The translations under genes and the position numbers were made by a program. A DNA stretch of 64,000 bases from Syntrophales bacterium. Its GTDB lineage: Bacteria; Desulfobacterota; Syntrophia; Syntrophales; UBA2210. Below the pieces are notes generated by a model. It ran no database searches and had not been told where the DNA came from. It worked only from the letters and a program-made list of their open reading frames with translations. Location of the stretch: positions 155,098 through 219,097 of the forward strand of contig OY761459.1 in NCBI GenBank assembly GCA_963664485.1. The letters are read 5' to 3'. Below, piece by piece: positions 1 to 25,762 of the stretch; the stretch's first letter is position 1; every line of letters begins with the position of its first letter.

Positions 1-757
1 CTACCAGGCCCGGTTTGAACCCGAGAAAGTTCCACTTGGTGCCGGCTGCCTCCAGAACATCATTGGTGTCGATATTCAGCCGGTCAAATATCATGGCAAG
101 TTCATTAACAAGGGCAATATTCAGATCCCGCTGGGTATTCTCGATGACCTTGGCCGCCTCGGCTACACGGATGGTGGCGGCCCGGTGAACACCGGCAACC
201 ACGACGGATTCGTAAACCGAAGCAACTATCTCCAGCGTCTCGGTGTCCCAACCGGAGACGATCTTCCTGATTTTGGAAAAGGTATGCTCACTGTCACCCG
301 GATTAATGCGCTCGGGACTGTAGCCGACAGCGAAATCGCTTCCACAGACCAGGCCGGAAACACGCTCCAGTATCGGCACACATTCCTCTTCCGTGACTCC
401 GGGATATACCGTCGATTCATAGACAACGATGTCACCTTTTTTTAAAATCTTCCCCACTGTTTCAGACGCACGGATAATGGAGGTCAAGTCGGGCCGCTTG
501 GCATCATCCACGGGGGTGGGCACGGCGACGATGTGAAAATCGGCCTGTCGCAGTTCTTCGGGCGCGCTCGTAAAAAGGATATCGGCACGGCCGAGTTCAT
601 CCGGCGTCACCTCGCCGGTACGGTCCCTTCCCTGCCGCAGTTCCGAGATACGTTCCGCATCGACGTCAAAGCCGATGGTCCTGCCTTTCAGCCCGAAGGC
701 CACAGCGACAGGGAGACCCACATAGCCGAGGCCTATTACTGAAACCGTTCTATGCAT
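1..757 (-). CDS. Nucleotide-sugar dehydrogenase (TviB/WbpO-type UDP-HexNAc dehydrogenase), 3' end outside window
   Basis: Not in ORF track. Manual translation from ATG 757: [22 protein letters not shown]...[52 protein letters not shown]; AAGGAG RBS upstream. Confidence 0.92.
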
Positions 758-816
758 TTGAATGCTCCTTTTCAATACAAGGGTGAAAAAATGTAAGAGT
801 AATACAGAATAATAAA

Positions 817-1087: not shown

Positions 1088-1876
1088 TCATTTCCCTGAG
1101 AATACCTGTTGTTGCTGCCAGTAGTTGCGGAAGGTCAGCACTCTTTCTTTCTGTTCCGGAGAAAATAAAAAGGGTTCCACATCACGGGCCAGGGATTCCA
1201 TCTCCAGTTCTTCCACTCTTTTTGTAAATTGCTCGATGATTTCTTTTTTTTCAATGCCGAGATATTCGGCGATGTATTCGAAATCAGGCTGCGCGACTCC
1301 CATCAAAATTGATACATCAAACAGATCACGGCCTTTTTCGCGTTTTCTCTGCATAACAGTCATCATTTTCTGGGATAACAGTATTGAAAGAGGGGCGGTA
1401 AGAATCTGCCGGTAGATGGTAAATCTATTCAGCAGGTGTCTCTGTGGTTCATAAAGTCTTTTCTTGCTTTCGGTGTCTATCCTTATCAGTATCTTCTGAC
1501 CGGCATCAGGGCTTATTCCCGATTTATACAGGATCTCCGGAAATCTCAGGTAACAATGATATGCTCCCCGTTCAACGGTTCTGTATTCGACCAGGAATCC
1601 CTTGGTTTCCATATCTCTGCAGGTCTTTTGAAGCGCTTCTTCAAATTGCCCGAATGTCAGGCCGAAATTATCAAAGTCGAGATCTTCTGAAAAACGCGGA
1701 CTCTGCTGCAGCATCCGGATAGCCGTGCCGCCTATAAAGCTGAGAGACGAGGCCTCCTTAAGTTTAAACAGGGAGTCGAGAAGCTCGCATTGCAGATATT
1801 CGACCAGAATGCCCCGCGGGTTTATTTTTGCCACCTGTTCGGAAAAGTATCCTTTGATCTGCTCTAAGGTAAGCAT
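1088..1876 (-). CDS. AbiEii/AbiGii-type nucleotidyltransferase toxin (type IV TA)
   Basis: FIGGTAIR and RFSEDLDF motifs, KGRDLFD; overlaps antitoxin gene. Confidence 0.9.
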   Translation of the reverse strand: MLTLEQIKGYFSEQVAKINPRGILVEYLQCELLDSLFKLKEASSLSFIGGTAIRMLQQSPRFSEDLDFDNFGLTFGQFEEALQKTCRDMETKGFLVEYRTVERGAYHCYLRFPEILYKSGISPDAGQKILIRIDTESKKRLYEPQRHLLNRFTIYRQILTAPLSILLSQKMMTVMQRKREKGRDLFDVSILMGVAQPDFEYIAEYLGIEKKEIIEQFTKRVEELEMESLARDVEPFLFSPEQKERVLTFRNYWQQQQVFSGK

Positions 1877-2463
1877 CTGTCAGCCCATATTTTCAGTTTT
1901 TTTATTTTAAATACCTGCAGGTATCGCGAAAATTTTTCTCTGTCTAATGTCTCGCTGAGCCGGTCTTCATTGAATCTCAGGTTCTTAAAATCGGATTCGC
2001 TGTTGATTTTTGACAGATTGAGGTAGAGGTAATCCAGCACCGCCTTTTCCGGCTCGGCGATGAGATACCTGCCGGCATCTGTTTTTACTTCCCGGTATCC
2101 CCAGAACAGTTCACTTTTTACATGACGATAGATGAAATGCCCGAATTTATTATCAAAGGTACGGTTGATCTTCGCGGTTACGCTGGTATAGGAATATACC
2201 ATTTCCGGGATAAATCCGTAGGATGAAAGGGCGCTCTCCAGACTCAGATAGCTGGGCTGGTAAAGCGCCGAGGCGACTTCCTCGCCTTTGATTTTGTCGT
2301 AATCCTTGCTGAACGCATAGATTCCGTTTTTCAGTTTAAGCAGATATCCCCTCTTTACCCAGCGAGTCAGCTGGTAATCAAAAATTTTTCCTCCAGCCAA
2401 CATGACATCGGTTTTCGAAAAAACAGGGGTTTGTATCAGCAATATCAGGTCTTCGTATTTCAT
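1864..2463 (-). CDS. AbiEi-type antitoxin / transcriptional regulator
   Basis: N-terminal wHTH (LTRWVKRGYLLKLKNGIY), PSYLSLESALS.YGFIPE, AEPEKAVLDYLY. Confidence 0.88.
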   Translation of the reverse strand: MKYEDLILLIQTPVFSKTDVMLAGGKIFDYQLTRWVKRGYLLKLKNGIYAFSKDYDKIKGEEVASALYQPSYLSLESALSSYGFIPEMVYSYTSVTAKINRTFDNKFGHFIYRHVKSELFWGYREVKTDAGRYLIAEPEKAVLDYLYLNLSKINSESDFKNLRFNEDRLSETLDREKFSRYLQVFKIKKLKIWADRCLP

Positions 2464-2470
2464 ATTTTTA

Positions 2471-2499
2471 TCAATATTAATAAATTAATGAAATGTCAA
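2471..2499 (-). promoter_or_regulatory. Putative sigma70 promoter for abiE
   Basis: TTGACA-17 nt-TATTGA, ending 7 nt before the ATG. Confidence 0.5.
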
Positions 2500-2511
2500 G
2501 GCGTCCTTTCA

Positions 2512-2703
2512 GGGGTTAGACTCTTTAAATACTCTGGATTCCGGCTTTCGCCGGAATGACAATAACTGGATACCGGCTTTCGTAGGAATGACTGAAAAGG
2601 ACACTGGATTGCGGTTTTCACCGCAATGACTAATAAAAAAAGAACTGGATACCGGCCTTCGCCGGTATGACAAAAGAGTGCCGGGGTGACGGCCGGTATG
2701 ACG
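2512..2703. repeat. Family A REP-like array
   Basis: Units at 2534, 2566, 2604, 2645; 2566-2697 matches 953-1084 at 130/132 nt. Confidence 0.95.
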
Positions 2704-2724
2704 AAGAAGTAAGAAGACAGAGGG

Positions 2725-4020
2725 TCAGTTTCCTAAGGCCCATTTCCAGATGGGGATTGCTTTTATTTTATTGTCTATAATCGTTTCGTCATCCCACGTT
2801 ACTATGGTGCCTGTCGGAAATGAGAGTTCATCCATCGCGTTTTTCAATCCCCGTAGTTCTCTCTCGAGGGTTTTTTTGTCTGCCAGATCCCAACATACCT
2901 GGATCAGTTGCGTATCGCCTGAAATTTTATGCCTGGCGAAGAAATCTACCTCATAACCGTTTTTTGTATTGACATATTCCACGTCATAGCCCCAGCGGCG
3001 CAGATGCATAAACACCATGGTTTCGAGCAGTGGGCCGTAATTATGCGAATCGCGAAAAGTCATGGCGTTCAGAAGACCGGTATCGATCGTGTAGATTTTG
3101 ACCGGATTAATCAGCCTTGATTTTTCAGAGCGGCTGTGAATGGGAACTTTGTAAAATAGAAAAGCGTCTGCAAAATGATCGATATACTCGTACAGGCTGT
3201 TCTTGGTGCATTTGATCGACATGCTTTTCATGGTATTGTAAAACTTATTTACACTGAATTGACCGCCGGATGAATTCATGATGTGGCGCGCAAGATGTTT
3301 CAGAACAGTAACATTGCCGATTTTATGGCGTTCTATTATGTCTTTTAACAATACGGAGTCGATATAACCCTGTAATATTTCAATCCGAAGATCGCGATCG
3401 AGTTTCTGAATCTCCGGGAAGCCTCCGATTTCAAGATAGTCAACTGCGGCCTTACGTAACATGGAGACGGTGCCGGCGCCGAATGTTTTCGGTCTGTCTT
3501 GAAAAAGACCATGAAATCTTAAAAATTCTTCAAAGCTGAACGGGAATATCTCGATCGGAAGAGAACGTCCACGCAGTGTGGTGGCTATCTCGGAACTAAG
3601 CAGCTTTGATGATGAGCCGGTAATAAAAATCCGGAGATTTTCCGTGTCCAGCAGGCGCCGTATGAACATCTCCCATTGGTCTATTCGCTGTATCTCATCA
3701 AAGAAAAATTTACACCGGGTATCGCGATGTCCGGGATATTTTCCAAAATATACATCAAGAATTTCCTGAAAATTACGAACGGTAAAATCGAGCAGCCGAT
3801 CATCCTCGAAGTTAAGGTAAAGTATCTCCTCTTTTCTGGTTCCCGAGGCGATAAGCTCTCTTATTTTTTGATAACAGAACCATGTCTTGCCCGATCGCCT
3901 CATGCCTATGACAATATCCGCCTTGCCCTTTATCTCTGAAAATTCACCGGTCCGATTTACCGGCTCAGGCAATACCCGTTCATGGAAATCATCGATAAGC
4001 TGAGAAATTATGTTTTTCAT
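2725..4020 (-). CDS. AAA_14 ATPase with DUF4143 C-terminal domain
   Basis: Walker A GMRRSGKT, Walker B FFFDEIQ, ITGSSS, GGFPE, KIYTIDTGL, EVDF...IQVC. Confidence 0.9.
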   Translation of the reverse strand: MKNIISQLIDDFHERVLPEPVNRTGEFSEIKGKADIVIGMRRSGKTWFCYQKIRELIASGTRKEEILYLNFEDDRLLDFTVRNFQEILDVYFGKYPGHRDTRCKFFFDEIQRIDQWEMFIRRLLDTENLRIFITGSSSKLLSSEIATTLRGRSLPIEIFPFSFEEFLRFHGLFQDRPKTFGAGTVSMLRKAAVDYLEIGGFPEIQKLDRDLRIEILQGYIDSVLLKDIIERHKIGNVTVLKHLARHIMNSSGGQFSVNKFYNTMKSMSIKCTKNSLYEYIDHFADAFLFYKVPIHSRSEKSRLINPVKIYTIDTGLLNAMTFRDSHNYGPLLETMVFMHLRRWGYDVEYVNTKNGYEVDFFARHKISGDTQLIQVCWDLADKKTLERELRGLKNAMDELSFPTGTIVTWDDETIIDNKIKAIPIWKWALGN

Positions 4021-4101: not shown

Positions 4102-4352
4102 TCTTTCAAATACTCTGGATACCGGCTTTCGCCGGTATGACGAAAAAGGGAAATAGTCCAAGTTTTGATACTTCCTGGATTGCGGTTTTCACCGGGGTGA
4201 CGACCGGTATGACTAATAAGGAACCTGGATTCCGGGTCAAGCCCGGAATGACGGATAAAAAAACCTGGATACCGGCCTTCGCCGGTATGACGAAGGGACA
4301 CCAAATTGCATCGGGGTGACGGCCGGTATGACAAAAGAGTGCCGGTATGACG
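4102..4352. repeat. Family A REP-like array
   Basis: Several CTGGAT...ATGAC units; ~60 bp (4209-4267) match 860-918. Confidence 0.95.
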
Positions 4353-4395
4353 GTATAGTTGATGTTTTTATTTTTCTTGATTGGGAATAGTGAGT

Positions 4396-4926: not shown

Positions 4927-5035
4927 GGTGTCGGGCCTTTAAATATTCTGGATACCGGTTTTCACTGCAATGACTAATAAAAAAAGAACTGGATACCGGC
5001 TTTCGCCGGTATGACGGAGTCGGGACGGTATGACG
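4927..5035. repeat. Family A REP-like array
   Basis: ctggataccggttttcactgcaatgac and ctggataccggctttcgccggtatgac with the recurring taataaaaaaagaa linker. Confidence 0.9.
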
Positions 5036-5041
5036 CGAGTA

Positions 5042-6571
5042 TTAAAAGTCCCAGGTGATTTCGGTGCCCAGGAAATGGTTTCTCTGTTTCTGGTCTTTTA
5101 TGTTTTCATAATTGTCTATGGTTTCGTAGGCGTATCTGAACGTGAACCTGAGCAGTTCACTCATCTTAAAATCAGTTTTCAGGAAATACTGGTGTTTTTC
5201 CTGTGTGTCGGCAAGGCTCAGGCCGCTTCTCTCTCTGTCGAAACCGATTTCGTATGAAAACCAATCCGTGAGGCGGTGAGATAATCCCAGGAAGATATCA
5301 TCGGAATCGGAACCGGCGTGGTGTCCGAAAACATTTCCGTAATACTCCATCGGCCAGAAAGAATGAGTGTACCAGGAACCGGCGCCGCTCTCAGGAGAGA
5401 TATCGGCATACTCGGCCCGCACGGTAAGCCCGTCTATCGTGAAGAATTCGTGCAGCGCCATTCCCAGGATATACGCGCGCTTGTCAGGCGGATAGCCCGC
5501 GTCTTCCGCTCCCCATTCCGCGTAGAGTTTTATGGATTCGGCCACCGGCAGAAACCGGTCGACACGCGGTATCGTGACGGCAACATCCACGGCAAATTCC
5601 TTGTTGCTGTCCCGCCTGTCGCCGTCCCGGCATTCGTTGCTGAATATTATATCGACATAATCCGAAAAACCCAGGCTGTCGATACCCGGCCTGTCACCGC
5701 CGAAATGGGCGAGATACGACAATCCGAATTCCATCAGGGGATGAGGTTTCAAGTCGATCCTGGCGCCAAGCAGTTTCGAATCCGGAGGGTGACCGGATTG
5801 CGGATCACCGTCCAGTTCGGCCAGAAACAGATTATACCTGAATGGTCCCAGGCTGCTCAGGATCCAGGGGAGAAGCGTGCCCCTGGGATTCGACAGTTTG
5901 ATCATGTCGAAGGGCTTGGCGTTGTTCGAGAGAAGAAGTGAACCGTGATACCCCGGCCCCCACCAGAGCGAATCCCTGCCTGCTTCGATCTCGAAATTGC
6001 CGGCGTGAAACTTTACATATCCCTTCTGCAGCCTGACTATTGTATCGTCGTTTCCGTAGACATTATCCAGCCGCTGATTGTATAGAACGACGGGCTGGAC
6101 ATAGAACGAAAAGACATTCCACAGCTCGCCCCGCGACTCGAACCCGGCCATCGCGTTGTGACCGTCGTAATACGCAATCCCCTCGTTATTGAATACGGAG
6201 CAGGGTCCGTCCAGGTAATTATAGACGACGGAAAATGATTCCAACGGCTTTATAAAGGTACCGGGCCCGCTGCCCGGTTCCACGGCTTCGGCGATCTCGT
6301 CCTTATATTCCTTCGACAGGGTTTCTAGCAGGGCTTCGCAGGGGGAAGATTCTTCTGTGCCGACCCGGGTTATCGCCTCTGCAAGCAGCCTGCCCGCTTC
6401 AGCCCGGGTAAACGGTTTTGTCGACGACAGACTGCTCTCTATAACCCCCTTCGAGACGAGAACATCCAGGTCCTCGTAGAAAGAAGACCCGGGCGATATG
6501 TTGACGGAGGCGTTCGCGGCCGTCGCGAAGACGATTATCGCAAATATGACGAGATATTGGATTTTATTCAT
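5042..6571 (-). CDS. wzi: Capsule assembly Wzi family outer-membrane protein
   Basis: Signal peptide, KPFTRAEA, GRDSLWWGPGYHGSLLLSNNA.PF, C-terminal Phe. Confidence 0.88.
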   Translation of the reverse strand: MNKIQYLVIFAIIVFATAANASVNISPGSSFYEDLDVLVSKGVIESSLSSTKPFTRAEAGRLLAEAITRVGTEESSPCEALLETLSKEYKDEIAEAVEPGSGPGTFIKPLESFSVVYNYLDGPCSVFNNEGIAYYDGHNAMAGFESRGELWNVFSFYVQPVVLYNQRLDNVYGNDDTIVRLQKGYVKFHAGNFEIEAGRDSLWWGPGYHGSLLLSNNAKPFDMIKLSNPRGTLLPWILSSLGPFRYNLFLAELDGDPQSGHPPDSKLLGARIDLKPHPLMEFGLSYLAHFGGDRPGIDSLGFSDYVDIIFSNECRDGDRRDSNKEFAVDVAVTIPRVDRFLPVAESIKLYAEWGAEDAGYPPDKRAYILGMALHEFFTIDGLTVRAEYADISPESGAGSWYTHSFWPMEYYGNVFGHHAGSDSDDIFLGLSHRLTDWFSYEIGFDRERSGLSLADTQEKHQYFLKTDFKMSELLRFTFRYAYETIDNYENIKDQKQRNHFLGTEITWDF

Positions 6572-6611: not shown

Positions 6612-6812
6612 GTCCCGAATCGGAGTCCGGGGCAGGCTTAAAGGGCACTGGATACCGGCCTTCGCCGGTATGACGAAGGAGCGTGATTGCAATGTTTAAT
6701 GTTGAATGTTGAATGTTTAATTAACAGATTGAAGACAGTAAGGGATCATCCAAGCCAATACGTCATGCCGGACCCGATAAGCCTGCCCCGTACCTGATAC
6801 GGGGGCATCCAG
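6612..6812. repeat. Mixed repeat cluster: family A units, heptamer tract, nested gcctgccccg...cgggg hairpin
   Basis: Unit at 6648-6674; ttgaatg/tttaatg tract at 6690-6723; reverse-oriented unit cgtcatgccgg...catccag at 6761-6812. Confidence 0.85.
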
Positions 6813-7103
6813 TCAAAGAATCGTATTGTACAAGTCTTTCCAATCGGGATTAATTTCTTCAATCAGTGCCAGTTTCCATTTTCGTTTCCATTCTTTCAGT
6901 CGCTTCTCTCGCTCAATAGCCGATTCCATACTTTCGTGTATTTCGTACCAGACCAGTTGGTGAACGCCGTAGCGTTTGGTAAAACCTTCCACGGTGTTGT
7001 TTTTGTGTTCCCATATTCTTTTAACGAGGTCTGAGGTTACTCCGATATAGAGGGTTCCGTTTCGTTTGCCTGCCAGGATATAGACTGCCGGTTGTTTGTC
7101 CAT
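6813..7103 (-). CDS. Small standalone GIY-YIG nuclease
   Basis: AVYIL...GTLYIGVTSDLVKRIWEH...LVWYE.H....AIEREKRLKEWKRKWK..LIE..NP.W.DL. Confidence 0.92.
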   Translation of the reverse strand: MDKQPAVYILAGKRNGTLYIGVTSDLVKRIWEHKNNTVEGFTKRYGVHQLVWYEIHESMESAIEREKRLKEWKRKWKLALIEEINPDWKDLYNTIL

Positions 7104-7112
7104 TGATTATTC

Positions 7113-7370
7113 CTGGATACCGGCTTACACCGGTATGACTGAAAAGGGCACTGGATACCGGTTTACACCGGTATGACAAAGAGGAGCCGGTATGACGAGA
7201 TAAGGGCACTGGTTTGCGGTTTTCACCGCAATGACGAATAAGTAACCTGGATTCCGGGTCAAGCCCGGAATGACGATAAAAAGAACTGGATACCGGCCTT
7301 CGCCGGTATGACTGAAAAAGGCACTGGATACCGGCTTTCGCCGGTATGACAAAAAGGAGCCGGCATGACG
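7113..7370. repeat. Family A REP-like array
   Basis: About six CTGGAT...ATGAC units starting 9 nt upstream of the GIY-YIG ATG. Confidence 0.95.
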
Positions 7371-7414
7371 AGGGAGCGCCGTTATGCCAGAGTCGGCAAG
7401 GGTTTCGACCCCTT

Positions 7415-9880
7415 TTAAAGGTTCAATTTATCGCGCAGGAAGCTCCATCCCCTGTTAATATGTTTTTTCGAACTTTTTACCTTTTTTCTCTTTTTTTCCT
7501 TGCCCTGTTCCTGGTCTCCATAACTGTAGTAGTACTGGTAGTAATACCGGTAGTAGTATCCGTTCGAGGAAACGTTGACCTTGTTGAGAGCCAGGCCGAG
7601 CATCTTGCCGTCGGGCATGGTCTCCAGCGCCTGTATCAGTGCTTCTTTTTCGGTCTTTTCGGCGCTTACTACGAAGATCATTCCGTCGAGGCCATGCGAC
7701 AGCACGACCGCGTCGCTTACCGACAGCACGGGAGGACCGTCGAAAAAGATATAGTCGTATCTGCCGGACAAGTTATCGATTATGGTTTGCATCTTCTGCG
7801 AACCCAGCATCTCGTTCGGGTTGTGCGGGATATCGCCGGAACAGATAATATCCAGACCCGGTATCGGGGTTTTTTTCGTAACGTCGCGCAACGATTCTTC
7901 GATATCGTCGGCCATTATCAAGTTGGAAAGTCCCGGCGACCGTTTCTGATCGAACAGCCTGTGCAGGCGCGGTCTTCGCATATCGGTGTCGACAAGCAGA
8001 ACCTTTTTATCCGCCTGGGTAACGGAGACGGCCAGGTTGGCGACGAATAATGTTTTGCCCTCTCCGGGCAGCGCGCTGGTTACGCCTATCAATCTCTTAG
8101 GTGTGTCGAAGGATGTAAAGAATACGTTCGTCCTGATCGTTCTGAAAGCCTCGGATATATTGGCCTTCGGCGTTACATGGGTTATGAGCTCTTTGTTTTT
8201 ACCCCCCGAATCTCCCTCATCAAACTTCATGATCGATCCCAGGAGGGGAACGGTGGTAATCTCCTTCAGGTCGTCCGGGTTCTTTATCGTATTGTCCAGG
8301 TATTCCAGGAAGAAGGCGATCCCGACTCCCATGAATACGCCGATAATCAGCGCGAGGAGTATGTTCCGTTTCGCCCTGGGTTTGACCATTCCAGCCGAGC
8401 CGGCCTTGTCGACAACCCATACGTTACCGATCTCGCTAGCTTTTATTATCTCGAATTCCTGCTTCTTCTGGAGCAGGGATGAATAGGCGCTCTGCTGTAC
8501 GCCTGTTTCCCTTGTCAGTTCCGCCAGCCGCTTTTCGGCATCGGGAAGGTCTTTTATACGCGCCTCGTAAAAGGAGATGTTGTCTTTTATGGATTTCTCG
8601 TTAACTTTCAGGGACGCGATCACGGATGAGAGCTCCGAGTCGATGGCTTTTTTCGCTTCCCTGATCTGTTCGGCGGTTTCGACGACCAGGGGATGTTTTT
8701 CCTTGTAGCTGATTTTCAGGGTGATCATGCGGGACTGGAGTTCGGATAACCGCTGGGCAAGGGTATTCAACCGCTGGTTCTCTATACTGGCGCCGAGAGC
8801 GACAACATTGGTATTCAAAGTATCGTCGGCACTCATGCTGACGATAAGTTCCGCCTGCTTCCGCAGGCTCTCGTTTTTTTTCAGCTCGACATCGGACGCG
8901 ATAAGCTGCTGCAGGGTTATGGTGGCATCGTCGCTCAGAGAAACAAATTTTTCCTTTTCCTTGAAAAGCATGAGCCTGTTTTCGGAAGATTTTAATCGTT
9001 TGTTGAGTATTTCTATCTGCTCGTCGATAAAGGAAATCGCCCGCTCGGCGTCTTCGGTGTTTTTAAGGACGGCGAGTTTCTTGTATTCCGAGACGATAGC
9101 GTTCACCTTGGCGATCGCGGCGGAGGGTTGAAGATCTGTGGCGGATATCTCGATAAGTTCGGTGTTTCTTATCGGGGAAACCTCCAGGCTGGCCCTCAGG
9201 CTTTCGCTCGCCGAAGACAGGGGCAGAACGCTGAATTCGATAGTTTTACCCTTTTTCGCGCGGTCGCCTTCGACCATGATGGCAAAGTCCGGCCCGAAGA
9301 AGGGTTTGTTAAGTTCCCCTTTTTCTTCGAAACCCGAGTTATTGTCCCTTTTGATCACGAATGAGGAGGGTCCGTCGAATCTGAGAACATAGCCGCGTTT
9401 TTTGTTGACATCTCCCACGCTAAGTGTCGTGAAGGAGACGGGTCTGGCGGCCGTTTCCTCCGCGAAATCTTTCGAAGAGAAAATCTTCGACAATTTTTCT
9501 CCTATCCGGCCGAGCAGGATTCCGATCATCCTGTGCTCGGGCTTTATACGGATCTGGTACAGGCTCGACTTTGCCGCCTTCTCGGAAACCGTCCGGCTCT
9601 TGAGTATCTCGACCTGTGTCTGGATCATCGCCTTGGGCAGGCTGCCGCCGCCGGTAAAGCTCTCTTCCAGGAGGGTCTCAAGATTCGTCGATCCCCCGCT
9701 CTTCTGGTATATCTGGATGGTCGATCTAGACTCGTAGACAGGCGCGGCGGCAAGGGTCGCTATGATAACACCCAGGAACACCACGAGAGCGATAATGCCG
9801 ATCAGCCATCTTCTCCGGAGTATAACGCTCAGGTAATCCCGGAGGCTGATTTCTTCATTCATATGCCTGTTATCGAACAT
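7415..9880 (-). CDS. wzc: Polysaccharide co-polymerase / BY tyrosine kinase
   Basis: Wzz-like N-terminus with two TMs, EAFRTIRTN, Walker A PGEGKT, VDTDMRRP, Tyr cluster YYYRYYYQYYYSY. Confidence 0.93.
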   Translation of the reverse strand: MFDNRHMNEEISLRDYLSVILRRRWLIGIIALVVFLGVIIATLAAAPVYESRSTIQIYQKSGGSTNLETLLEESFTGGGSLPKAMIQTQVEILKSRTVSEKAAKSSLYQIRIKPEHRMIGILLGRIGEKLSKIFSSKDFAEETAARPVSFTTLSVGDVNKKRGYVLRFDGPSSFVIKRDNNSGFEEKGELNKPFFGPDFAIMVEGDRAKKGKTIEFSVLPLSSASESLRASLEVSPIRNTELIEISATDLQPSAAIAKVNAIVSEYKKLAVLKNTEDAERAISFIDEQIEILNKRLKSSENRLMLFKEKEKFVSLSDDATITLQQLIASDVELKKNESLRKQAELIVSMSADDTLNTNVVALGASIENQRLNTLAQRLSELQSRMITLKISYKEKHPLVVETAEQIREAKKAIDSELSSVIASLKVNEKSIKDNISFYEARIKDLPDAEKRLAELTRETGVQQSAYSSLLQKKQEFEIIKASEIGNVWVVDKAGSAGMVKPRAKRNILLALIIGVFMGVGIAFFLEYLDNTIKNPDDLKEITTVPLLGSIMKFDEGDSGGKNKELITHVTPKANISEAFRTIRTNVFFTSFDTPKRLIGVTSALPGEGKTLFVANLAVSVTQADKKVLLVDTDMRRPRLHRLFDQKRSPGLSNLIMADDIEESLRDVTKKTPIPGLDIICSGDIPHNPNEMLGSQKMQTIIDNLSGRYDYIFFDGPPVLSVSDAVVLSHGLDGMIFVVSAEKTEKEALIQALETMPDGKMLGLALNKVNVSSNGYYYRYYYQYYYSYGDQEQGKEKKRKKVKSSKKHINRGWSFLRDKLNL

Positions 9881-9898: not shown

Positions 9899-11344
9899 TT
9901 AGAAATCTTTGATAATGGTCTGTATTACTCGCGTCGTTGTTATCGTGGGAAGTACCTGGTTCAGGAAAACATTCCAGTCCGCGATGGCCGTCCTGGCCAC
10001 ATAGACGGTATCGCCCCTTTCGAGATAGAATCTCTCCAGGCTTCCGCCCTTCATCATTTCGAGAACGTTTACGGAATACACTTTGGGATCGCGGGGGTTG
10101 CCCCTGACAACGACGACCTGGGAACGGTTGGCGGTCTCCTTGAATCCTCTGCACGCGCTTATTGCTTCCATCAGATCCAGAGGATCCGTAAAATACTGTA
10201 CCCCGGGTGTAGTAACCTCGCCGACGACAAATACCTTGTTTTCGTTATTGTTGGGAATATAGACAATGTCTCCGTCGTTCAGGAGTATGTTCTGGTTCAT
10301 ATCGCCGTAATCGAGAAGCCTCTTGAAGTTTATCGGGAGTATGTCGTTGTCCCTGGCCAGGTAGGCCATGTACAGGTTAGCGGTATCAGAGTTTATACCC
10401 CCCGCCCGTGAAAGCGCGTCGAGAATGCTGGAGCTTCTTTTCGTCTTGTATCTCCCCGGGCTTTTCACCTCTCCGAGCAGGACGATCTCTTTCAGGGGTT
10501 CAGATATTACCACGGTGTCCCCGGGGTGAAGGGTGACATTCTGACTGGTGTCGCCATCTTCTAGAAGGGCCTTCAGATCGACCGGGATCACCGTCTCGCC
10601 CCTGATGACGTAAGACTCGGCCAGATCGGCATCCGGTTCTATCGAGACGACGGACAGGATGGACAGCAGCGTCCTGTCGCCTCTCAGCGTGTAGGTCATT
10701 GTGGACGGGCCGACATAGGTTTCAGGTTTTGCTATGGCCCCGACGACGGATACCTGCAGGCTGTTCGGCACCTTGCAAGTTACGGTGATCTGGGGATCTT
10801 TTATGTACGCGTCGTATTTTTCGGCGATAATCGCCTTGAACTCCGGGATGTCCAGCCCGGCGGCGTAAACATCGCCTATCAGGGGAAGCGACACGTTTCC
10901 ATCGGATCTTACCGGCACATCCATCGATATATCTTCATTTTTCCATATGTAGATATTGAGGACGTCGTCGATGCCTATCTCGTATTTTACCCGTTCCCCG
11001 TTTTTCGGCAGGTCTTCCGGCATGACGATTTCTTTACCGGCAAACCTGGCTTTCAGGTAGTCTTCCTTCGTCAGCACATTTTTCTTAAGCTCGATCAATG
11101 TGCGTTCGCCCTCTTTCATCTGAGGCACGGGGACTGTTTTGGCGAAGGAGGGAAGCGGTGATTCGGGGGGATTGCCGGCGGCTGGAGAAGCTGCTTTGAA
11201 AACCCATTTATGAGTTTCCTTGTCCCAGGAAAGTTGCGAACTCTGTTCATTCCGGGGAGAAATTTCCCTGACGACCGGGTGAGCGCACGCGCAGATAAAA
11301 CCGGCAAATATACATACCATTATGATGCTGACATATTTTTTCAT
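9899..11344 (-). CDS. wza: Polysaccharide export lipoprotein with SLBB repeats (Wza-like)
   Basis: Lipoprotein-type signal after MKKYV, YEIGIDDVLNIYIW, DGNVSLPLIG, three V.GEV..PG-type repeats; start may be 11392. Confidence 0.88.
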   Translation of the reverse strand: MKKYVSIIMVCIFAGFICACAHPVVREISPRNEQSSQLSWDKETHKWVFKAASPAAGNPPESPLPSFAKTVPVPQMKEGERTLIELKKNVLTKEDYLKARFAGKEIVMPEDLPKNGERVKYEIGIDDVLNIYIWKNEDISMDVPVRSDGNVSLPLIGDVYAAGLDIPEFKAIIAEKYDAYIKDPQITVTCKVPNSLQVSVVGAIAKPETYVGPSTMTYTLRGDRTLLSILSVVSIEPDADLAESYVIRGETVIPVDLKALLEDGDTSQNVTLHPGDTVVISEPLKEIVLLGEVKSPGRYKTKRSSSILDALSRAGGINSDTANLYMAYLARDNDILPINFKRLLDYGDMNQNILLNDGDIVYIPNNNENKVFVVGEVTTPGVQYFTDPLDLMEAISACRGFKETANRSQVVVVRGNPRDPKVYSVNVLEMMKGGSLERFYLERGDTVYVARTAIADWNVFLNQVLPTITTTRVIQTIIKDF

Positions 11345-11460
11345 CTCGATTACCCTTATCGCGAAATCTTTGCGTAACGTTTTATTCGTCACGCCGGACC
11401 TGGCCCGGCATTCATAACGTATATGAGAATAATGGATTTACCCATTTAAAGGAACGTGTT

Positions 11461-11851
11461 GTCATTCCGTGCACGCGAAACACGATACGGAATCCGGTGT
11501 TATTTTTCTGGATTCCGGCGTCCGCCGGAATGACGATATGAGACAGCCAGATTCCGCCATCATTCTAGTCCGTCATACCGGCGAAAGCCGGTATCCAGTT
11601 CTTTTTTTATTCGCAACCCCGGTTTTCACCGGAATGACAGAGGAGCTTGACTCCAATGTTGAATGCTTAATTTTGAATTTTTAATTATTTCTACGGCAAG
11701 TAGAGAAGTTTGCATAACCTTATAAAATATGCCTCTTTTTGTCATTCCGTGCACACGAAGCACGATACGGGATCCAGTATTCCTAAAAACCTCTGGATTC
11801 CGGTTTGCAACGGAATGACGGCTTTGACATATATTGTTGCCGAAGTAATAA
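11461..11851. repeat. Composite repeat region (family A in both orientations, heptamer tract, TIR-bounded module 11685-11851)
   Basis: gtcattccgtgcacgcgaaacacgatacggaatcc variant; ttatttctacggcaag...gttgccgaagtaataa. Confidence 0.88.
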
Positions 11852-11886: not shown

Positions 11887-12699
11887 TCAAGAATTAATGG
11901 AGCGTTTCCTGAAAATTCCCGGCATAAAGGATCTTCGCTTCCGGACGGGTTCTTTTTTCCACGGTACGGGAAACCGCGTGTCGATATCTTCCCCGTTCAA
12001 TATCCTGCCGGGGATCTCCCGGACCATCTCCATCGCGGTCTTTTCGCCCACTATCTTTTTCAGGCGTTTCAATGCCTCCGAGAAGACAGGCCTTCTCCGC
12101 GTGCTCGAGTGGGCATCCGTCACCATCATGTGAATCAGATCATGTTCCAGAAGTGATACGGAAAATGCTTCTATCTCGCTGCCGAAACGCCCGTTAAGAC
12201 TGGACGTGGTCAGCTGGGCCAACGCTCCCAGTGTTACCATCCGATAGATTATTTCCGGATTCCTCATAAGAGCCATATTTCTTTCCGGATGGGAGATAAT
12301 CGGAACAATCCCGGCGAACACGAAGGAAGATATGATCTCTTCCATGTTACGGGGAAGCGCCTCGCCCGGAAGTTCCAGTATAACGTATTTCCCGGAATCG
12401 TTTACAGTCATCAGTTCCCCTCCCTTTATCCTCTCGATAAGGCCGGGGTCGAGGTGAATCTCGCAGCCGGGGAACAGGGCCAGTGGGATCCCATTCTCGT
12501 TTATCGCCGCCTGCAGTTCGTTCACATGCCTTAAGATCTTTTCACGGTCGTTACTGTATTTTCCCGTCGTGTTATGGGGGGTACAAACCACCTTCGATAT
12601 ACCGTCGCTCACGGCGATCCGGCACATTTCGAGGGACTCCTCGAGCTGTTTCGGCCCGTCGTCGATACCGGGAATAATGTGACAGTGCAGATCAATCAA
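11887..12699 (-). CDS. CpsB/CapC/YwqE PHP-family tyrosine phosphatase
   Basis: MIDLHCHIIPGIDDG, TPH, SHPERN, TDAH. Confidence 0.93.
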   Translation of the reverse strand: MIDLHCHIIPGIDDGPKQLEESLEMCRIAVSDGISKVVCTPHNTTGKYSNDREKILRHVNELQAAINENGIPLALFPGCEIHLDPGLIERIKGGELMTVNDSGKYVILELPGEALPRNMEEIISSFVFAGIVPIISHPERNMALMRNPEIIYRMVTLGALAQLTTSSLNGRFGSEIEAFSVSLLEHDLIHMMVTDAHSSTRRRPVFSEALKRLKKIVGEKTAMEMVREIPGRILNGEDIDTRFPVPWKKEPVRKRRSFMPGIFRKRSINS

Positions 12700-12702
12700 A
12701 GC

Positions 12703-12995
12703 GATGTTTAATGTTAAATGTTGAATGTTGAATGGTTAATTATTACCGCGGCAATTAAAGAGGTTAAAGGCAGAGTTCAAGGGGCCGAGGGTCCGAGGAA
12801 CTGCTGTCATAATTACTGCGGCAACAATATATGTCAAAGTTGTCATTCCGGTGCAAACCGGTGTCCAGCCCCTTTTTGTCATTCCGTGCACGCGAAGCAC
12901 GACACGGAATCCAGTGTTATTTTTCTGGATACCGGCCTTCGCCGGCATGACGGAGTCGTTCCGGTTTTCACCGGGGTGACGCGCCAGAATGACGA
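12703..12995. repeat. Composite ~220-bp repeat element (heptamer + octamer + family A)
   Basis: Near-identical to 19105-19340 and 19372-19570. Confidence 0.92.
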
Positions 12996-19075: not shown

Positions 19076-19750
19076 GGAAACACCTTGAATGCAATTTGCA
19101 ATGTTTAATGTTTAATGGTTAATTATTATTGCGGCAATTAAAGAGATTAAAAAGGGTTCAGGGTTCAAGGGGCCGAGGGTCCAAGGAACTGCTGTCATAA
19201 TTACTGCGGCAACAATATATGTCAAAGTTGTCATTCCGGTGCAAACCGGAATCCAGCCCCTTTTTGTCATTCCGTGCACGCGAAGCACGACACGGAATCA
19301 AATGTTATTTTTCTGGATACCGGCCTTCGCCGGTATGACGATATGAGATTGACTGCAATTTCAAATTTTTAATGGTTGAATGTTTGATTATTACTGCGGC
19401 AATTAAAGAGGTTAAAGGCAGGGTTCAAGGGGCCGAGGGTCCAAGGAACTGCTGTCATAATTACTCCGGCAACAATATATGTCAAAGTTGTCATTCCGGT
19501 GCAAACCGGAATCCAGCCCCTTTTTGTCATTCCGTGCACGCGAAGCACGACACGGAATCCAGTGTTATCAGGCAAGTTCCCATATTCCCCCTGCTTGACA
19601 CGGGAGCATCCAATGTTATTTTTCTGGATACCGGATTTCTCCGGTATGACGAAAAAAAAGAACTGGATTGCGGCGTCCGCCGGAATAGCGGTACGAACTA
19701 ACTGAAAAGCGTTTCATTAAGCATTAAACATTCAAAATTAATAATTGCCA
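19047..19750. repeat. Composite repeat island with a tandem duplication of the ~220-bp element
   Basis: Copies at ~19105-19340 and ~19372-19570, heptamer tracts at both ends in opposite orientation, extra family A units at 19624-19686. Confidence 0.92.
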
Positions 19751-25330: not shown

Positions 25331-25762
25331 TTATTACTCCGGCAACAATATGACAGCAGTTCCTTGGACCCTTGAACCCTTGGCCCCTTGAACCCTTGGA
25401 CCCTTGAACCCTTGGACCCTTGAACCCCCGGCCCCTTGAACCCTTGAACCCTGCCTTTAACCTCTTTAATTACCGTAAGTAATAATCAAAGATTCAACAT
25501 TAAACATTCAACATTGTACTCAAGTTCCTTCGTCATTCCGGTGAAAACCGGAATCCAGAAACTGTCTGGTAACACTGGATTCCGTGTCTTGCTTCGCGTG
25601 CACGGAATGACGACTTTGACATATATTGTTACCGGAGTAATTATGACAGCAGTTCCTTGAACCCTTGGCCCCTTGAACCCTTGAACCCTTAGAGCCCTTG
25701 AACCCTGCCTTTAGCCTCTCTAATTACCGTAAGTAATAATCAAAGATTCAACATTAAACATT
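25331..25762. repeat. Composite repeat island (TIR-bounded octamer modules, family A units, heptamers), inverted relative to the 12.7/19.1/34.4 kb copies
   Basis: ttattactccggcaac (25331)...ttaccgtaagtaataa (25485); second module ends ~25740. Confidence 0.92.

Follow-up and report, generated by a model that had tools for sequence, protein, structure and literature searches.

In this study, we analysed a 64-kb stretch of a Syntrophales genome (contig OY761459.1, hereafter the window) and found that a gene for a small GIY-YIG nuclease in a capsule/exopolysaccharide (EPS) locus, together with the hairpin repeats on its two sides, is a normal example of the published Ssn nuclease/repeat system. 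This system, in which nucleases of the Ssn family are paired with NTS/SRM repeats, was described recently (Chenal et al., 2025, Nat Commun 16:2388; PMC11893778) and is therefore already known. By analogy with the characterised homologues, the open reading frame (ORF) very probably encodes an Ssn family nuclease that behaves as they do and has the hairpins as its SRM. Thus, a gene of this genome that was previously 'hypothetical' gains a functional name, and the Ssn/SRM identity would explain the repeat arrays that punctuate the capsule/EPS locus. An earlier reading of the raw letters (the sequence-only reading) had proposed a cognate nuclease/repeat pair, arranged like a REPtron with a GIY-YIG enzyme. 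Both the comparative data presented here and the Ssn paper agree with this idea, which was largely right and not new: the reading had rediscovered a real system, in which a very small nuclease and a hairpin repeat found throughout the genome belong together.

The nuclease gene and its hairpin repeats

The gene runs from an ATG at 7101-7103 to a stop codon at 6813-6815 (Table 1), and residues 6-77 of its 96-aa product match PF01541 (GIY-YIG, E 1.9e-17), with no other Pfam domain. Y8, Y19, R29, H33, E66 and N85, as well as G21, are the commonest residues at their positions in at least 97% of 94 homologues. In a tblastn comparison, the window protein aligned over residues 4-96 with a 94-aa ssnA-type ORF of Neisseria gonorrhoeae (E 8e-25, 65.6% identity) that has seven exact copies of the NTS consensus within 1.5 kb; via this ORF, the match lies well within the threshold for SsnA homology of the Ssn paper (E < 1e-10). 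In this alignment, the gonococcal residues Y6, Y17 and E64 stand opposite Y8, Y19 and E66 of the window protein, and cutting was reported to be abolished by Y6A, Y17A and E64A (PMC11893778). Four features of the Ssn family (CDD cd10448) are thus found: a single GIY-YIG domain of about 94-100 aa, homology to SsnA, the catalytic residues and SRM flanks, of which the stop-side unit retains tag and tail only. The protein also resembles the Slx1-like/UPF0213 GIY-YIG proteins of the YhbQ type in its minimal domain of about 100 aa; this similarity is weak, and PDB 1ZG2 is the sole solved chain that a sequence search returned (E 0.0019). The genome encodes a second small GIY-YIG protein, a YhbQ-like paralogue at 1780625, which has no repeat flanks, so the link to the repeats is specific to the ssnA-type subfamily.

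The repeat units have the form CGTCAT-stem-loop-stem-ATCCAG, canonically folded into an 8-bp stem with a 4-nt loop. A strict pattern, CTGGATNCCGG-N5-12-CCGGNATGAC, has 23 matches in the window and 0 in 100 dinucleotide-preserving shuffles. We counted 31 units in the window; a detector looser than the strict pattern found 136 units in 61 clusters in the 2.59-Mb genome, compared with 4 units in a shuffle. The published SRM pattern has 86 matches genome-wide, against 11 and 16 in two shuffles, and matches beside the gene at 7113-7140 and at four further sites. These hairpins share their repeat class with NTS of Neisseria, defined as CGTCATTCCCGCGMAVGCGGGAATCYRG (PMC11893778), and with Neisseria dRS3, which was assigned to the CGTC-1 family of repetitive extragenic palindromic (REP) elements (Di Nocera et al., 2013; PMC3733652). 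With CGTC-1 REPs they share the CGTC tag, an 8-bp stem starting with AT, a 4-nt loop and a CCA tail, a layout that is found at 6648-6675 as the succession CGTC, ATACCGGC, GAAG, GCCGGTAT and CCAG. No dedicated enzyme for CGTC REPs was found in the 2013 study, and 'GIY' does not occur in its text (PMC3733652); the associated nuclease was supplied later by the Ssn paper (PMC11893778). Literature word searches that joined GIY-YIG with REP-type repeats returned nothing relevant.

Several details of the sequence-only reading hold at the gene itself. The upstream array lies 9 nt from the ATG, with its first unit starting at 7113, and the Shine-Dalgarno-like AGGA of the coding strand (7111-7114) overlaps the tail of this unit, whose CTGGAT begins at 7113. 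On the coding strand the unit reads AGTCAT-ACCGGTGT-AAGC.. ..ATCCAG and folds into an 8-bp stem with a 4-nt loop (z -4.5 against shuffles). The array comprises units at 7113-7139, 7151-7177, 7209-7235, 7247-7274, 7286-7312 and 7324-7350, and two tag-side half copies at about 7187-7196 and about 7360-7369. From 0.8 to 7.4 kb, each of the 18 detected units shows CTGGAT..ATGAC on the plus strand (the earlier reading had spoken of most), and units are present in each intergenic gap of this region. Two claims need qualifying. Orphan units had been said to occur by the dozen up to 34.5 kb, which is a little generous; the 31 units of the window end at 25.6 kb. A reversed unit (cgtcat...catccag) had been placed directly at the stop codon: its ends, position and distance of 0 nt stand, and both tag (CGTCATGCC) and tail (GGCATCCAG) are preserved. 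Inside, however, it differs from a clean copy and consists of another, nested hairpin, CCCCGTA..TACGGGG. At homologous loci, the stop-side position holds a plain or similarly nested unit (e.g. L006, L012; L102).

Two observations concern the fine structure of these units. The nested hairpin CCCCGTA-N5-TACGGGG, followed by CAGGC, is a second repeat inside the stop-side unit (6785-6806); it also occurs in tandem beside the gene copy of G311, a genome of the same genus (L102, about 3530-3590), and within the downstream unit of L006. In addition, a tag-side half-unit with about 10 nt of flank is duplicated in tandem at 7167-7198 and 7340-7371 and in the flanks of L001, L014 and L016. These duplications have a period of about 20 nt and up to 3 copies, and always lie on the side that is cut by the characterised Ssn enzymes; they may be a footprint of repair or slippage.

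Conservation of the flanks and repeat numbers across genomes

From the window alone, chance co-location stays possible, since every gap between 0.8 and 7.4 kb holds units and the gene could simply sit in a stretch full of repeats; moreover, its two flanks barely form an inverted repeat (score 20 versus 19 for the best shuffle). We therefore turn to the homologues. The family is a very large one with tight sequence conservation: at least 7981 of 8000 scored candidates had E <= 1e-10, and the best 120 candidates are 79-99% identical to the window protein. A scan with one genome per species gave 253 relatives, of which the best 80 loci (72-89% identical; 81 gene copies) were used. They span Thermodesulfobacteriota, Nitrospirota, Methylomirabilota, Chloroflexota and Pseudomonadota, including Gallionellaceae. 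The frame is 96 codons long in 72 of the 81 copies, and 8 copies contain one in-frame stop.

A unit begins no more than 8 nt after the stop codon in 54 of the 81 copies, an inverted unit lies within 45 nt upstream in 53, and both are present in 43. At least one side has a unit within 60 nt in 75 copies. The distance from the end of the upstream unit to the ATG is 9-14 nt in 33 copies if ATCC is taken as the end, or 7-12 nt if the complete tail ATCCAG is. Away from the gene, the same loci contain 93 units in 611 kb (0.15 per kb), and many loci of about 10 kb have no unit other than the flanking two. The flanks also pair with each other: 68 of 75 flank pairs exceeded all 20 of their own shuffles in inverted-repeat score, and 53 scored at least 40. 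The sequence-only reading had named beforehand one outcome that would refute it, namely homologues no more often flanked than other EPS-locus genes. The opposite was observed, and flanking so far above background shows that the linkage between gene and repeat is specific. Chance co-location is refuted by the 75 flanked copies and the loci with no other unit, and we give it practically no weight. Judged from these sequences, the gene with its inverted flanking units is a module resembling an insertion sequence (IS), conserved across phyla and patchy in its distribution. For comparison, Chenal et al. found at least one motif beside 71% of ssnA homologues and motifs on both sides of 42% (PMC11893778).

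The hairpins could instead function as RNA, by terminating or stabilising transcripts or by acting in translation, with a position beside a nuclease gene that is unrelated to the enzyme. They are intergenic, those from 0.8 to 7.4 kb all run in the same sense as the genes beside them, and the upstream tail overlaps the Shine-Dalgarno-like motif. Yet no U-tract follows the stems, an Rfam search of the window matched no family, and homologues whose gene neighbourhoods are unrelated have these hairpins at their sides too. Furthermore, the meningococcal enzyme binds the hairpin as DNA but does not bind the corresponding RNA (PMC11893778). A purely RNA-level role is thus very unlikely.

Co-phylogeny of repeat and protein had also been suggested as a test by the sequence-only reading. 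On the protein tree (96 columns; 8 of 82 rows omitted for in-frame stops), 5 changes suffice for the orientation of the flanking units, where shuffles average 9.65, and 13 for the stem type, where they average 19.7; none of 200 shuffles reached so low a number for either trait. Orientation and stem type hence cluster on the tree, but physical linkage would give the same pattern. With 47 of 71 inner branches unresolved, the tree is too poorly resolved for transfer between phyla to be read from it. The flanking units are flipped, with tags instead of tails toward the gene, in a Gallionellaceae/Nitrosomonadales clade (L049, L058, L060, L065, L069, L078) and in N. gonorrhoeae (L146). At three loci with flipped units, the inverted repeat reaches at least 120 nt per side.

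The expected relation between gene presence and repeat count was found as well. In a phylum sample of 301 genomes, a homologue (E <= 1e-20) is present in 67, with a patchy distribution even within genera, and the general unit pattern occurs in 150, while a reversed control pattern is almost never seen. Of the 37 genomes whose homologue is at least 60% identical, 33 have at least 10 units (median 49 units), versus 35 of 234 genomes without a homologue (median 0); related genomes are not independent, so p-values overstate the effect. Similarly, the published survey reported an ssnA homologue for 137 of the 169 genomes in which the motifs number more than 200 (PMC11893778). Genomes without the CCGG pattern have variant hairpins, with an unchanged tag, on the sides of the homologue. 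Orphan units share the stems of the gene's flanks in four genomes (G034, G160, G192, G012); in G178, a search for orphan stems with the flank pattern gave no match. The occurrence of the system in this phylum is not new either, since Desulfo-named genomes appear in supplementary tables of the Ssn paper and a Desulfobulbaceae genome is among the 29 used there as references (PMC11893778).

The similarities to the Ssn/NTS-SRM system of Neisseria extend from the single GIY-YIG domain of about 95 aa, the catalytic residues and the flanked gene to the units, which fit the SRM pattern, share the NTS frame CGTCAT..stem..ATCYRG and gather near genes for surface structures. Unlike in Neisseria, the stems are ACCGG or TCCGG instead of TCCCGC, tandem arrays of one orientation fill each gap of the EPS locus, the stop-side unit is degenerate, and activity and biological role are predicted ones. 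Meningococcal SsnA (94 aa) binds its motif only as single-stranded DNA (ssDNA) and only on one strand, and its cut falls in the variable flank, a few nt upstream of the hairpin; in all, four purified homologues, SsnA and three others, cut ssDNA next to their own repeat, and the characterised homologues leave duplex DNA uncut (PMC11893778). In Neisseria, such cutting restricts incoming ssDNA and lowers recombination of incoming DNA at such loci, and an ssnA knockout raised transformation with motif-bearing DNA about 5-fold (PMC11893778). By analogy, the protein encoded in the window would bind the CGTCAT..ATCCAG strand, only as ssDNA, and would cut it a few nt 5' of the hairpin, while duplex DNA and RNA would stay uncut. 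The earlier claim that the nuclease nicks the repeats is thus supported by homology, with the correction that the substrate would be ssDNA of one strand and the cut would lie a few nt upstream of the hairpin. Because all 18 units among the capsule/EPS genes share one orientation, each intergenic gap would be cut in a single strand of the locus that enters the cell or becomes exposed in it. Potentially, this would limit recombination at the locus, as it does in Neisseria.

Several points weigh against the assignment to the Ssn system or against parts of it. The composite unit at the stop codon is degenerate, its fold is no better than that of shuffled sequence (z -0.4), and the published SRM pattern fails there. 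The link to the assayed N. meningitidis enzyme runs through the gonococcal ORF. That enzyme is inactive when the palindrome is changed and the hairpin kept (PMC11893778), so the CCGG stems found here would need a co-adapted specificity. Among the 234 genomes without the gene, 9 have at least 50 units. In three of these unit-rich genomes (G286, G169, G233) the small GIY-YIG copies that were compared adjoin tRNA 3' ends and not SRM units; G229 has no comparable small GIY-YIG match and G223 only one of UvrC length. In G312, a genome of the same genus, the only homologue (62% identity) has flanks with CCCGC stems, whereas the units counted there are of the CCGG type. Finally, ComEC and DprA homologues are present in the genome, which is a weak sign of DNA uptake as they also occur in 10 of 14 control genomes. 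As a separate observation, the copies at L120, L122 and L123 (G286, G233 and G169, respectively) belong to another small GIY-YIG subfamily (34-39% identity) and lie between a tRNA 3' end and a duplicate of that 3' end.

Spread of the repeats

Apart from cutting, the nuclease might also multiply and disperse the units in a REPtron-like manner, as the sequence-only reading had suggested, with orphans and doublets as non-autonomous derivatives. This mobilisation would add to the Ssn assignment, and we consider it unlikely. Like a REPtron, the system has a single-copy gene between inverted hairpin repeats that are abundant elsewhere in the genome, a one-sided tag on the repeats, and doublets in the manner of REPINs. 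In contrast to the RAYT proteins of REPtrons, which are of the IS200/IS605-type HUH class, the enzyme is a hydrolytic GIY-YIG nuclease without an HUH motif or the fold of a catalytic-tyrosine transposase, and the tag is CGTC instead of the GTAG of RAYT-associated REPs. No HUH/Y1 transposase of the IS200/IS605 type was recognised in the window protein, whose sole Pfam match is GIY-YIG.

Mobilisation is favoured by the IS-like layout, with the gene between inverted units, and by gene-less doublets of the same geometry in which a spacer of 10-45 nt takes the place of the gene. Orphan stems match flank stems within genomes, and within genera the gene-bearing genomes tend toward more units. Unit arrays also vary between near-identical strains, as seen in Logan contigs; one X3 contig has the gene in an unchanged position next to different arrays, which is weak evidence as such contigs break at arrays. 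The same hypothesis was raised in the Ssn paper, where the NTS-ssnA-NTS layout is compared with insertion sequences and RAYT/REP, and where domestication and the spread of the repeats are put forward as hypotheses only (PMC11893778). A literature search for follow-up work on SsnA found none on mobility.

The doublets themselves point in another direction. Most orphans of G312, G306 and G199 are doublets, made of an inverted unit, a spacer of 15 or 24 nt and a forward unit, in a geometry equal to that of the gene's flanks. They are centred in palindromic elements of about 150 nt (L107-L118 of G312 and G306; L127-L143 of G199) that have terminal inverted repeats of their own (..CGTAAAAA.. / ..TTTTTACG..), and at least three arm families of such elements coexist in G199. 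Direct repeats of at least 7 nt (7-14) flank 13 of 19 elements, against 32 of 342 cross-pairings. This suggests that the doublet carriers resemble MITEs (miniature transposable elements with inverted repeats), with target duplications of 7-14 bp, and that they have a different mobiliser, since such duplications fit a staggered-cut transposase better than a hydrolytic ssDNA nuclease. None of the terms 'MITE', 'target site' and 'duplication' appears in the main text of the Ssn paper (PMC11893778). The MITE-like carriers in related genomes are thus a concrete lead on how the repeats multiply.

Besides these carriers, the 9 unit-rich genomes without the gene speak against mobilisation by the nuclease, and no target duplication was seen around the gene-bearing copies. 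To our knowledge, GIY-YIG enzymes are hydrolytic and none is known to carry out strand transfer. The far-reaching proposal that ssnA and its two inverted units form an autonomous mobile element, whose ssDNA nuclease also multiplies SRM units and doublets, is unlikely. If it were true, a transposition-like process would be powered by a GIY-YIG enzyme, and the question of 2013 about the mobiliser of the CGTC REPs would be answered. It is tempting to relate this proposal to the nesting of the elements: the gene is centred in a doublet, the doublet in a longer palindromic element, and units lie in the loops of other units. If ssnA were such an element, the nesting might reflect insertion at hairpin tips.

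Alternatively, the repeats could be landing sites and not products, in which case the gene would be a selfish insert that homes to the middle of doublets. Together with its ribosome-binding site, it takes exactly the place of the doublet spacer, and a unit starts 0 nt after the stop. The distribution is patchy (67 of the 301 phylum genomes, 3 of 14 in the genus), copies 72-89% identical are found in Thermodesulfobacteriota, Nitrospirota, Methylomirabilota, Chloroflexota and Pseudomonadota, and the single in-frame stops in 8 of 81 copies would suit such an insert. Like the GIY-YIG homing endonucleases I-TevI and Seg, the protein has the catalytic domain and a selfish-looking patchy distribution; unlike them, it has no DNA-binding module. 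The model of group I intron endonucleases (TIGR01453) gave 24.6 bits against a cut-off of 56.05, and the characterised Ssn relatives cut ssDNA only and leave duplex DNA intact (PMC11893778). Just 1-3 gene copies are present per genome despite up to hundreds of potential sites. In addition, G311 has the gene at the same wzi-wzc position (91% identity), although its wzi and wzc-like genes are only about 72% identical to those of the window. Homing is hence quite unlikely, and membership of the GIY-YIG homing endonucleases was rejected for this protein of 96 aa with one domain and a low model score. We retain the Ssn assignment as the explanation for the pair of gene and repeats.

The capsule/EPS locus and further repeats

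The gene lies between a wzi-like and a wzc-like gene of the capsule/EPS locus (Table 1). In G312, wzi and wzc are about 100 nt apart, and both gene and units are absent from the gap. In the genus sample of 14 genomes, the gene is present in 3 and units are present in 10. An AbiEii toxin gene, a 199-aa ORF and an AAA_14/DUF4143 ATPase gene (1088-4020) sit among repeat arrays inside the locus.

Table 1. Position of the gene, the hairpin units and the neighbouring genes in the window.
Feature	Position	Strand	Basis
ssnA-type gene	6813..7103	minus	96-aa ORF; single-domain GIY-YIG nuclease by PF01541 match
Leader of 9 nt, ATG to first upstream unit	7104..7112	minus	window sequence
SRM/NTS-like hairpin unit beside start codon	7113..7139	minus	SRM pattern match; folding
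Upstream array, six units in a single orientation	7113..7372	minus	unit detection and SRM pattern
Degenerate composite unit abutting stop codon	6761..6812	plus (opposite orientation)	window sequence
Canonical unit between ssnA-type gene and wzi	6648..6674	minus	SRM pattern; fold z -4.1
Four more unit arrays	828-1079, 2524-2705, 4105-4353, 4938-5036	minus	one per intergenic gap, common orientation
UDP-glucose dehydrogenase	2-775		domain search
AbiEii toxin gene, then 199-aa ORF without Pfam match	1088-2463		
AAA_14/DUF4143 ATPase	2725-4020		
wzi-like capsule assembly gene, downstream neighbour	5042..6571	minus	PF14052, E 7e-70
wzc-like chain-length determinant/tyrosine kinase, upstream neighbour	7415..9880	minus	GNVR, Wzz and AAA_31 domains
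wza-like exporter	9899-11392		
cpsB/capC	11887-12699		

Across the genome, 79 units lie in one orientation relative to the replication strand and 57 in the other (p 0.07); with the units clustered, no strand bias is concluded from this. A further motif of 20 nt, GGCAACAATATATGTCAAAG, has 31 copies in the genome (up to 3 mismatches) and 0 in a shuffle. Five copies lie in the window (11822-11841, 12820-12839, 19208-19227, 19468-19487 and 25614-25633) and 26 elsewhere. For 24 of all copies, a unit is no more than 250 nt away; these copies lie to one side of the clusters, and the motif may be the end of a composite element that bears units. One convergent pair of the motif, 1.6 kb apart (L147, G000 1486187-1487835), encloses no ORF of at least 80 aa and no transposase. 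An AT-rich repeat, AATGTTGAATG.., is found at 6698-6722 and 11655-11679, each time beside a cluster of units.

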